This document shows positions 12,529-14,630 of a stretch of DNA of 64,000 nt, piece after piece. Every line of letters starts with the position of its first letter. Position 1 is the first letter of the stretch. Below the pieces are notes generated by a model, which worked only from the letters and a program-made list of their open reading frames with translations, had not been told where the DNA came from and searched no databases. The stretch lies in assembly GCA_034521495.1 (NCBI GenBank), contig JAXHMK010000021.1, forward strand, positions 115,455 through 179,454, given 5' to 3'. The stretch is from Balneolaceae bacterium. GTDB lineage: Bacteria > Bacteroidota > Rhodothermia > Balneolales > Balneolaceae. A program made the translations under genes and the position numbers.

Positions 12529-12559
12529 ATACCCCTAACCTATATATGGCCTCCAATGT

Positions 12560-13060
12560 CAAGTGGCAATAGCATTCCCTGGCAAGAAAAATTTTCCTCA
12601 CCTAACCGCACTCGATAGCCTTTCCGTGGAATTGTACTACAAGCAGTATTCAACGATGGTTTGCAGCATCATGACTGCACCAAACACATATAGAGGCTCG
12701 ACAGCTGGCAGTCAGTATATAAACCGACTGTAACCAACCGGTCCTGCCGGTTGCAAGACGGCCATAGAACATATTGCGTACCCTGATCCCGGATGATCAA
12801 GCGCGGGGCTATGGCATTATCGAATCGCCATTCCAGTTATGGAGCATCTCGGAGCAGGGGCAGTACATGCCGATGGTTTCGGCACACCACATGCCGAGTA
12901 TCGAAAAATCCAGGGGCAGCTACCGCCTCCAATCAAGCGGTGCGAGCTGGGCGTTATGGCCTGGCCAGCCGAGGAATGATCTACAAAATAGTCATAGTGA
13001 ATGGGCTGGACGAAAGGCTCTTACCATAAAGCTTAGTTAGACGTCGGGCTGGCGGTAGCT
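12560..13060 (-). ncRNA. Candidate seek/bridge RNA region of the IS1111-type element
   Basis: Position is as known for IS1111 non-coding regions; contains 7-mers matching the restored target (CCTAACC, TAACCAA, CAAGCGC). Boundaries are not resolved. Confidence 0.45.
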
Positions 13061-13066
13061 CCCCAT

Positions 13067-14136
13067 TTATGTTTTTTGTTTATTCATGATCGAATTTGTC
13101 AGAAATTTGTGCTCATTAAAGGGTTCCCGCCGCTTGAGCATATAATAGACCGCCACTCCCAGGCGCTTGGCAATGATGGTCAAAGCTTTTCCTTTTCCGT
13201 GACGGCTGATCAGGCGGTTATAATATTTTTCAGCCTGGGTATTTCCTCGCAGATATAACAGAGAAGCTTCCGAGAAGGCCCACCGCAGGTGCGCATTGCC
13301 GATGCGGCCGCCAGTGGTCCCGTAATTTTTTCCATTGGAGGATTTCTGCCCTTTCACCAACCGGGCATAGGAGCAAAACTCACCCGGCTGGGAAAACGGC
13401 CAATATCGTGGATCTCGTAGAGCATCGTCAAGGCCAGCACATCCCCGACTCCTCTAATGCTTTTTAGAAGGTACAGGCTTGTAGGATCGTGTCCCTTTGC
13501 CAGAGACAAGATCTGCTTATCCAGTCGTTTGATGATCGGGTCATAATGGTCGATCAGTTCCAAATCGGTTTGAATCATAAGCTGTACAACCGGATCGGGA
13601 AAATGCCCCACGATATCTTTATCCCGGCGATGATGTGGGCGCGAGAGTGTCCCCAACGACGGCAAATTGTACTGGCTCGTTGTATTTTGAATATGCCCCA
13701 ACAGCTCCGCCCGTTTGCGGACAAAATGATTGCGCCGTCGCATCAAATCCCGGGTCGCCCGCATCTGAGGCGGATAGACATAAGCCACCGGAAAGTTCCC
13801 GCCCCGTATCAGCCGGGCGATCTTCAGCGAGTCGATGCGGTCGTTCTTGGTTTTGACTCCGTGAATGGCCTTCATATACAGGGCGTGACCCAGGATAAAG
13901 TCAATGCCCTCTTGCTCACATAGATCTGCAATCCAATACCAACAGAAAATGCACTCAACACCAACGACAAGACCATCCCGAAACTCGGCAACGGCTTCTA
14001 AAAAAGCTTCCGGAGTGCACGGACGGTTCTTGTGATAGACAACGCTGCCTTCGCTGTCCAGGATACAGATGTACATAAACCTTGCGTGTAGGTCAATTCC
14101 GTAGTAATATGAATGGATACCGGTATAAACGTTCAT
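13067..14136 (-). CDS. IS110-family DEDD transposase, frameshifted near 13385
   Basis: GIDLH, GVEC, KNDRIDS catalytic residues. Adding one G restores PSRGEFCSYARLVK, which joins the 13067-13360 ORF (GNAHLRWAF). Confidence 0.9.
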
Positions 14137-14147
14137 GGTTTTTCCTC

Positions 14148-14211
14148 CTTGAATAAGTTATAGGTAAGAACATAATGTACTTGAATAAGTTATAGGTAAG
14201 AACATAATGTA
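14148..14211. repeat. Perfect 32-bp tandem duplication upstream of the IS110 transposase
   Basis: CTTGAATAAGTTATAGGTAAGAACATAATGTA x2 (14148-14179, 14180-14211). Confidence 0.9.
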
Positions 14212-14630
14212 AGCCTCGGAGGAGGCCATGAACAATATCAAGCGCATTAACGCGGACAGGCCTCGCCATCCCCTTGCCTCCCTTTCATTTATTAGTTAAT
14301 CTTTCGTTTTAAAACGAATTCGACACTCGGCGCCTGCCGGTTATGCGCAATGTCGATATGGCTTGAACACGGCATGCTAAAATATTAGAGAACTTAAGAA
14401 GCCGTGCTCTTCAATATAAGACTTTTAAGTAATTTTAAACTTTAGCGAGTAGACATTTCATTACGATCAAAAACTATTCTGTATCAAGTCTAGTCCATTT
14501 CTTAGAATTATAGACGCTTTTAGCTTTCCTGAAAGTTGATGCTTTAAAGTTTTTTGTGACTTTTTAGCTATTTCTCCGACTACAATACCACAACGACATT
14601 CTAAACTTTAATCACATATACCAACTTATT

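Follow-up and report, generated by a model that had tools for sequence, protein, structure and literature searches.

An IS110-family insertion sequence of the ISGsu4/ISMahy12 clade that splits an attC site in a Balneolaceae cassette array and is most likely RNA-guided

Introduction

IS1111 insertion sequences (ISs) that hunt for attC sites are known from Pseudomonas and from clinical class 1 integrons, and RNA-guided targeting was shown in 2024 (PMC11187229). The IS1111-attC subgroup (ISPa21, ISPst6, ISKpn4 and, more distantly, ISPa25; Tetu & Holmes 2008, Post & Hall 2009) is presented in a passage of PMC3001079, citing Tetu & Holmes 2008, as a monophyletic clade of ISPa21/ISPst6-related transposases. 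Here we analyzed a 64,000-nucleotide (nt) stretch of DNA from Balneolaceae bacterium (GenBank assembly GCA_034521495.1, contig JAXHMK010000021.1, positions 115,455 to 179,454; hereafter the window), in which an IS splits an attC site of a gene cassette array. Like members of the subgroup, this element targets the R''/L'' (5') end of attC, lies antisense to the cassettes and has produced no duplication. We conclude, with a probability of roughly 85%, that it is an IS110-family element of the ISGsu4/ISMahy12 clade, inserted antisense between R'' and the 3-nt spacer plus L'' of attC, that its targeting is most likely RNA-guided, and that the copy in the window is probably non-autonomous.

Two further kinds of described systems bear comparison. 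IS621 (PMC11208160) and ISEc11/ISEc21 (PMC11187229) also combine a DEDD recombinase with an element-encoded structured RNA and have a junction promoter on the circle. Unlike in these elements, the candidate RNA of the window lies 3' of the gene and contains two TAAC/CTTGAT modules plus separate end-related segments, with no clear 2-nt core. Group IIC-attC introns (PMC3001079) also insert antisense near the attC 5' end; they are retroelements with a ribozyme and a reverse transcriptase, whereas the window element is an IS with a DEDD transposase, and this candidate was rejected on anatomy.

Results and Discussion

Anatomy of the element and of the split attC site

The element and the two parts of its target consist of the following features.

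12533..12539, plus strand: R'' box CCCTAAC of the split attC, which remains joined to the upstream OLD-family nuclease cassette
12540..14238, minus strand: whole insertion sequence, with ends set by comparison with 44 related insertions
12540..12545, minus strand: terminal extension of the right end (minus-strand sequence ATATAG), beyond the inverted repeat
12546..12554, minus strand: right subterminal inverted repeat, GGAGGCCAT on the minus strand, the exact reverse complement of the left repeat
14221..14229, minus strand: left subterminal inverted repeat, ATGGCCTCC on the minus strand, the exact reverse complement of the right repeat
14230..14238, minus strand: left-end terminal extension, ATATTGTTC on the minus strand, from comparison of element ends
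14239..14365, plus strand: remainder of the split attC, with the 3-nt spacer CAA, L'' (GCGCATTAACGCGG...), L' (CCGGTTATGCGC), a 6-nt spacer and a degenerate R' (GATATGG)

The window sequence reads CCCTAAC at 12533-12539, followed by C at 12540, and CAAGCGCATTAAC begins at 14239. Owing to the single C found at either junction (12540 and 14239), the element can be delimited as 12540-14238 or equally as 12541-14239. Beyond this one shared base there is no target site duplication, as is characteristic of the IS110 family. In plus-strand reading, the 9-bp sequence ATGGCCTCC at 12546-12554 has its exact reverse complement, GGAGGCCAT, at 14221-14229. This perfect repeat represents IS1111-style subterminal inverted repeats, for which the published lengths range from 7 to 17 bp (PMC11208160) and are usually 11-13 bp (PMC11187229). 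Across the clade, the terminal extensions measure 9 bp at the left and 6 bp at the right end, which departs from the IS1111 pattern of 7 or 6 nt left and 3 nt right. The 1,699-bp element lies on the minus strand, where its only large open reading frames (ORFs) are found, whereas the cassette ORFs are on the plus strand. Its non-coding DNA is distributed asymmetrically, with 527 nt between the stop codon and the end of the IS versus 102 nt upstream of the gene (a tandem duplication described below included), and the candidate RNA module sits immediately 3' of the transposase stop codon. Thus, the precise insertion into an attC-like site, the 9-bp subterminal repeats, the lack of a duplication and the antisense orientation given in a preliminary description of the window can all be read directly in the sequence.

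Deletion of the element in silico gives CCCTAAC-CAAGCGCA-TTAACGCGGA, that is, CCCTAAC joined to CAAGCGCATTAAC. A spacing-based pattern search found the same 7+8 spacing in three intact sites of the window.

10437: intact site GCATAAC-AAGGCGTT-TCAAGCGGA, spacing 7+8
17698: intact site ATATAAC-CATGCAAA-TCAAGCGGA, spacing 7+8
18428: intact site GGTTAAC-AATGTGGC-TCAAGCGGA, spacing 7+8

The preliminary description had proposed that removal restores a site spaced like the others. This holds for the spacing and architecture but not for the literal string, as the patterns CCCTAAC-N6-CATTAAC and CTAAC-N8-TTAAC have no second site in the window. The literal searches failed because the sites are too heterogeneous; what they share is spacing and architecture rather than an exact string. 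Spacing identical to that of the restored site is also found in a metagenome contig that carries an uninterrupted site of the same attC family (..CCCTATAAC-CCATGCC-ATTAAC..), and an independent short-read metagenome contig spans the cassette-to-IS junction (12200-12565) with zero differences. The insertion is therefore real, because the contig with the intact site keeps the spacing and the junction contig matches fully.

Six sites in the 10.4-20.2 kb region form hairpins of the layout R''-(3 nt)-L''...L'-(6 nt)-R' in which single bases bulge out. The R' sequences are GTTAGGG, GTTAACC, GTTAGGC, GTTATAT or GTTATCT, apart from the degenerate GATATGG of the split site. The top-strand fold of the split attC carries bulged bases, and the split site shares 92% identity with the terminal one (20025-20151). 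The repeats of the window are thus attC sites of ordinary R''-L''...L'-R' layout, and the earlier assignment to an atypical site class is not supported. As the insertion parts R'' from the rest of attC, it should block integrase-mediated excision of the upstream OLD-nuclease cassette at this locus.

Related insertions and conservation of the target position

A scan of one genome per species yielded 80 loci with related elements, and metagenome contigs added more; after the subterminal repeats were located, 44 distinct insertion events were retained. In transposase orientation, with a slash marking each element boundary, their consensus is ...GTCCGC-N-GC(T)TG / ATAyTnATn-[repeat 7-12 bp]...[repeat]-ATAnnn / GTTAnnn.... 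The right flank, which is equivalent to R'', begins with GTT in 42 of the 44 insertions and with GTTA in 36, the left flank ends in TG in 42, and both TG and GTT are present in 40. All 44 share one orientation. The restored sites fold as attC, and in about half of them the partner of L'' in the minimum free energy structure is followed 3-7 nt further on by GTTR, the R' box.

Insertion is thus site-specific, as in other IS110-family elements, with the insertion point kept in 40-42 of 44 events, and the antisense targeting of attC without duplication that typifies the IS1111-attC subgroup is common to the window element and its relatives. Because 44 distinct insertions outside the window have the same ends, repeats and flank pattern, the arrangement seen in the window is not due to chance. 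Comparison of the flanks of other copies had been proposed earlier, with unrelated, non-palindromic targets as the outcome that would speak against attC targeting; no such outcome occurred among the 44 insertions. The relatives instead occupy the same place in attC-like sites, which reinforces the attC reading of the array, as originally suggested, and provides independent evidence that the repeats of the Balneolaceae array are real attC sites.

By the titles of their records, the hosts comprise Balneolales, Gemmatimonadota, Longimicrobiales, Acidimicrobiia, Calditrichia, Thermodesulfobacteriota, a Flavobacteriaceae metagenome-assembled genome (MAG), marine Gammaproteobacteria and others. The element had been taken for a representative of the FCB (Fibrobacterota-Chlorobiota-Bacteroidota) group, a label too narrow for relatives that extend to Gemmatimonadota, Acidimicrobiia, Thermodesulfobacteriota and Gammaproteobacteria, among others. 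In contrast to these many bacterial groups, the hosts of the IS1111-attC elements are mainly Pseudomonas and clinical class 1 integrons.

Several relatives deviate from the common pattern. In the Geobacteraceae loci nearest to ISGsu4 (L042-L045), the right flank still starts with GTTR, the left flank reads ..TAACGG, ..TTGAGAC or ..GTAAGG in place of ..CGCTTG, and the terminal extensions also differ (GATACTG / AGA); these loci probably represent a retargeted sub-lineage. Given this different left flank, attC targeting marks only a part of the ISGsu4/ISMahy12 clade. Loci L002 and L003, from two Joint Genome Institute (JGI) metagenomes, contain an identical IS with an identical R''-side flank (RibD_C and FMN_bind_2 cassettes), and their attC remainders and cassettes on the L'' side differ, which is indicative of a rearrangement at the IS or through it, such as recombination between copies. 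Two right inverted repeats each are present in L033 and L054, the first at the normal distance and the second ~140-330 bp further out, and in the L033 alignment a part of the right end is repeated; these extra repeats may be tandem or partial end duplications.

Candidate guide RNA

The following elements were identified in the non-coding region between the transposase stop codon and the right end.

12913..13064, minus strand: seekRNA-like target-binding RNA module, from covariation and guide-flank matching
12793..12844, minus strand: second module, CTCCATAACTGG and GCGCTTGATCAT, with the same two TAAC/CTTGAT motifs as the first
12760..12776, minus strand: left-end-like segment CAATATGTTCTATGGCC, which resembles the left end ATATTGTTCATGGCC
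12675..12695, minus strand: donor-related RNA segment CTCTATATGTGTTTGGTGCAG, which copies the right-end extension plus GTT
12557..12562, minus strand: TTGACA, similar to a -35 box and directed outward from the right end, which could supply one half of a junction promoter

The target-binding module stands directly 3' of the stop codon and is conserved across the clade in the order GGGGAGCTACCGCC-AGCCCGACGTCTAACT-(variable hairpins)-CGCACCGCTTGATTGGA-GGCGGTAGCTGCCCC. Its closing (outer) stem pairs 13051-13064 with 12913-12927, and compensatory changes were detected in 12 of the 18 predicted closing-stem pairs (RNAalifold, 16 diverse relatives). The loop segments of the module are ACGTCTAAC and CGCTTGAT. 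The strand ACGTCTAAC (13036-13044) is complementary to the right flank GTTAG..., and the other loop strand, at 12931-12942 (CACCGCTTGATT), is identical to the left flank CGCTTG followed by the first bases of the left end. More generally, the 5' loop strand ends in yyTAAC, complementary to GTTRRR, and the 3' loop strand corresponds to ..CGCTTG plus the AT of the left end. This strand order, with the top-strand complement 5' of the bottom-strand match, agrees with that of IS1111 seekRNAs (PMC11187229).

The guides vary together with the flanks. TATAAC is found with GTTATA and TCTAAC with GTTAGR; the guide reads CTCTTTTG in L064, TTGTATTG in L047 and TGCGCTTG in L008 and L068, and CCCAGTG alternates with CCCCGTG in L037, L052 and L048. 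Over 41 insertions, guide-flank matches numbered 171 versus 125.8 expected and 89 versus 63.7 expected, and none of 20,000 permutations reached the observed values (p<5e-5). The element thus has what characterizes seekRNAs and bridge RNAs, namely a structured RNA with guides that match the flanks. The second module is conserved in the Balneolales group, and distant relatives show similar GAGCCCG..TAACTGG motifs.

Other segments are related to the IS ends. The right-end hexamer differs between IS lineages (ATATAT, ATACAT, ATAGGT, ATAAGT) and is copied within the non-coding region, where the downstream segment ...ATAnnnGTTTGGTGCAG repeats the hexamer plus GTT. The element's own hexamer plus GTT is present in 34 of 45 elements. 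By type, the copy of ATATAT occurs in 10/10 elements of its own type versus 1/35 of other types, that of ATAAGT in 10/10 versus 1/35 and that of ATAGGT in 11/13 versus 2/32. The CAATAT within 12760-12776 is complementary to the left-end bases ATATTG. At the right end, CTTGAC is nearly invariant in the alignment of the clade. Joining of the ends would place TTGACA 18 bp from the TATTGT of the left end, and by analogy with ISEc11 (PMC11187229) the two boxes would form a junction promoter on the circle. A clear 2-nt recombination core common to donor and target was absent, with one shared base at most in elements with G-type right ends and none in those with T-type ends.

It is unlikely that the element simply recognizes a short ..TG/GTTA.. 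sequence that is frequent in attC, with the attC targeting as a by-product and some other role for the RNA 3' of the gene, such as mRNA stability or termination. Several facts fit such recognition: an RNA guide reads sequence and not a folded attC, 4 of the 44 insertions lack the full TG/GTT, the left flank of a Vibrio campbellii plasmid copy is not obviously an attC L'', and the Geobacteraceae left flank is ..TAACGG. However, the guide-flank matches extend beyond TG/GTTA and change with the flank, as seen for CTCTTTTG, TTGTATTG and TGCGCTTG and for CCCAGTG versus CCCCGTG, and the restored sites of many bacterial groups show the full attC architecture.

Family placement

The transposase of the window is 56% identical to ISGsu4 (Geobacter sulfurreducens) and 55% identical to ISMahy12, the closest named transposases. 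Durrant et al. list ISGsu4 in the IS110 group of ISfinder, predict a bridge RNA in its right end and cluster it with ISGsu5, ISShfr7 and ISShwo5. We used the ISfinder sequences published with PMC11187229 as references and compiled a ten-sequence identity table. Identities are 54-56% within the ISGsu4 set, 32-47% within the IS1111 set and 35-43% within the IS110 set, and the ISGsu4 set is 16-22% identical to the IS1111 and IS110 sets alike. The window transposase is 16-21% identical to ISKpn4, ISPa25, ISKpn2 and ISKpn43 (IS1111 itself was not among the references) and 19-21% identical to the IS110-group references. Its identity to IS1111-attC transposases is 16-20%, and a published matrix gives ~17% between ISGsu4 and ISPst6, ISKpn4 and ISPa21. 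By pairwise identity, the full-length transposase is thus neither an IS1111 relative nor a member of the monophyletic IS1111-attC clade, whereas the layout, with a long non-coding region and a guide RNA 3' of the gene, is that of IS1111. Judged from these sequence comparisons, the element is an IS110-family member of the ISGsu4/ISMahy12 clade with an IS1111-style layout, which shares the behavior of the IS1111-attC subgroup but not its clade.

It is accordingly very improbable that the element belongs to the classical ISPa21/ISPst6/ISKpn4 lineage and represents its spread into the FCB group. The attC target, antisense orientation, lack of duplication, subterminal repeats and 3' non-coding region are all alike (PMC3001079), and the preliminary description had placed the element as a counterpart within that lineage. 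Against this assignment, BLASTP with ISKpn4 gave no significant match, identity to ISPa25 is 21% and the four IS1111 references reach 16-21%, compared with 55-56% for ISGsu4 and ISMahy12. The insertion points are also 6 nt apart: ISKpn4 (..ATCTAAC-AATTCA / IS / TTCAAGCC..) is inserted 6 nt past R'', in the spacer/L'', and the window element (..CCCTAAC / IS / CAAGCG..) 0 nt past it. An ISKpn4 copy in pPC9 (L084) reads ..ATCTAAC-AATTCA / IS / TTCAAGCCGAC.. and has 13-bp repeats and 7/3-nt extensions. Compared with ISKpn4, the window element has repeats of 9 versus 13 bp, extensions of 9/6 versus 7/3 nt (PMC11187229) and ~525 versus ~285 nt of non-coding DNA.

The strategy of hunting for attC is thus also used by an unrelated branch of the family, which inserts elsewhere in the site and occurs in many environmental bacterial groups. 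A literature search, outside of which the two founding IS1111-attC papers lay, found no description of attC targeting in the ISGsu4/ISMahy12 clade, though an earlier description is possible, and no published target description for ISGsu4 or ISMahy12 was found in the literature searched. We tentatively propose, at slightly less than even odds, that a third deep branch of IS110 (ISGsu4/ISMahy12) gained attC targeting independently, through its own guide RNA and its own crossover flush with R'', and spread through the cassette arrays of many groups. If so, it would be a general and so far undescribed shaper of chromosomal arrays, for example through immobilized cassettes and recombination between IS copies. 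More broadly, the data suggest that attC-specific ISs exert a general pressure on chromosomal arrays by splitting attC sites, freezing cassettes (here the OLD nuclease) and supplying portable homology. The clade also offers a natural series of guide-target pairs for studying the reprogramming of seekRNA/bridge-RNA recombinases.

The transposase gene and damage to the window copy

Two features describe the coding part of the element.

13067..14136, minus strand: DEDD transposase gene, split into ORFs of 260 and 97 amino acids (aa)
14148..14211: perfect tandem duplication of 32 bp, located between the start codon and the left inverted repeat and unique to the window copy

The Pfam domains PF01548 (DEDD_Tnp_IS110; E=2.4e-13) and PF02371 are divided over both ORFs, PF02371 in two halves, and both domains are borne by the intact homolog P0001, in agreement with the domain content of the IS110 family. 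P0001, a 356-aa protein from a Fodinibius sp. MAG, is 99% identical to the window transposase. Three-frame reading showed that the frameshift is a 1-nt deletion, with CCC at 13383-13385 (plus strand) versus CCCC in intact copies; metagenome contigs carry the extra C at this homopolymer. After one G is added, the window protein differs from P0001 solely at position 12. This Cys12Tyr change (14102) lies directly before the first catalytic Asp; position 12 is Cys in P0001, ISGsu4 and ISMahy12, and metagenome contigs have a Cys codon. The 32-bp duplication is absent from L001, L002, L003 and a metagenome contig.

The Fodinibius MAG copy is intact and sits in another attC of the same family. Direct alignment of the window element with it revealed the 32-bp duplication, the 1-nt deletion and two substitutions (Cys12Tyr and one synonymous), and blastn aligned the two in pieces at 99.7% and 95.5% identity. 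In a salt-pan metagenome the depth over the IS body is 28.6 versus 11.1 over the flank (~2.6-fold), from which it follows that several copies exist, the majority of intact form. With its frameshift, Cys12Tyr and 32-bp duplication, the copy in the window is probably in decay and non-autonomous, and could move solely with a transposase supplied by an intact copy. For annotation purposes, 12540-14238 should be described as a mobile element with a probable pseudogene and not as two small ORFs.

Proposed mechanism and opposing observations

In the mechanism that we propose, the non-coding region would encode a structured RNA of the seekRNA/bridge type that is transcribed and bound by the transposase, and the choice of target would most likely be guided by this RNA. 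One loop strand would pair with the GTTRRR flank, another matches the ...CGCTTG flank plus the first IS bases, and a further segment is a copy of the right IS end. Excision as a circle is expected by analogy with ISEc11, ISKpn4 and IS621, and the joined ends of this circle, reading ...GGAGGCCATATATAG directly followed by ATATTGTTCATGGCCTCC..., would form a promoter. Recombination of the circle junction with a new attC, carried out by the transposase-RNA complex, would follow.

A number of observations weigh against this model or parts of it. The association of guides and flanks could come partly from the common descent of IS lineages and of host attC families instead of from direct pairing; guide adaptation would itself be expected to leave such a shared-ancestry signal. 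A scan of 12300-14500 against Rfam returned no matching family and one chance microRNA match below threshold. In the lineage of the window element the copy of the right end is imperfect (ATATGT versus ATATAG), and segment 12760-12776, the candidate left-end guide, covaries only weakly with the left end. Neither the circle junction nor the empty site was seen in Logan contigs of public runs. The homopolymer frameshift might be an assembly or sequencing error. Finally, a non-exhaustive scan of 28 window ORFs found no integron integrase or tyrosine recombinase, and three related copies on long contigs (L087-L089) have no integron integrase encoded less than 10 kb away. As no linked IntI was found, the attC label rests on architecture. 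A PF00589 fragment lies ~2.6 kb from the L001 copy.

The least credible alternative, that the transposase gene is merely cargo of an integrase-captured gene cassette, draws on its position inside a cassette array between two attC-derived sequences, and was rejected on anatomy: the 1,699-bp unit splits a single attC between R'' and L'' instead of lying between two complete attC sites joined at the G/TT of R', and it is antisense, has its own inverted repeats and conserved ends, and is of a type that recurs in 44 different flanks.

The cassette array

The array is bounded by a sulfatase gene (7687-9288) and an ABC transporter gene (20268-22064), whose products cluster at >=90% (at least 90%) identity with proteins of Rhodohalobacter sulfatireducens and Balneolaceae MAGs, which places the host in the Balneolaceae. 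Its cassettes encode a Phd/YefM-YoeB toxin-antitoxin pair, an OLD/GajA-like ATPase-TOPRIM nuclease, Thioredoxin_3, ArsP and an ArsO-like monooxygenase, as well as an extracytoplasmic function (ECF) sigma factor, a DUF433-DUF5615 pair and a beta-lactamase-fold protein. This content is typical of chromosomal arrays, and the locus resembles an attC cluster without an integrase.

The IS-split attC belongs to the cassette at 10582-12528, which encodes a 648-aa ATPase-TOPRIM protein that matches the Old, GajA and AriA defense models (E ~1e-15) and Pfam AAA_21 plus an OLD-like TOPRIM domain; from these matches, it is predicted to be a phage-defense-type gene carried as an integron cassette. Region 14631-16926 encodes Thioredoxin_3, an ArsP permease and an ArsO-family flavin monooxygenase between two attC sites, and no attC was found between these genes. 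It is apparently a multi-gene organoarsenical-resistance cassette.

Two attC sites near the end of the array resemble the split one. The terminal attC (20012-20160) is 92% identical to it from CAAGCG on, with AAAATAT in the place of R'', and has no R'' able to pair with its R' (GTTATCT). The AATAT at 20025-20029 equals the outermost left-end bases of the IS in plus-strand reading, and the similarity extends no further than these 5 nt; it could be an IS footprint at the array terminus, or chance. IS footprints at array termini have been reported for Pseudomonas arrays. At 19646-19775 is a third member of the CGCATTAAC attC family, which reads ACCTAAT-CGCATTAAC and is without the ~4 nt (C-CAA/G) that its relatives have between R'' and L'', exactly at the IS insertion position. 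A deletion may have left this gap as a scar.

Word depth over the attC family at 14225-14386 reaches ~1224 in the salt-pan metagenome, versus 11-29 for flanking genes and the IS body. Such a depth implies a very high copy number of the family and suggests that the salt-pan population contains one or more large homogeneous arrays. Outside the array, a palindromic repeat of ~150 bp (CTTTGCAAAACCGTGGTTATTGGTCAATCTGAACTCGATTCAGA...GTTCAGGATGACGGTCAAAGTTTTGCAAAGC) has two to three occurrences (288-423, 7397-7428 and 9320-9471), two of which are 94% identical, and looks like a repetitive extragenic palindromic (REP) or miniature inverted-repeat transposable element (MITE)-type element.

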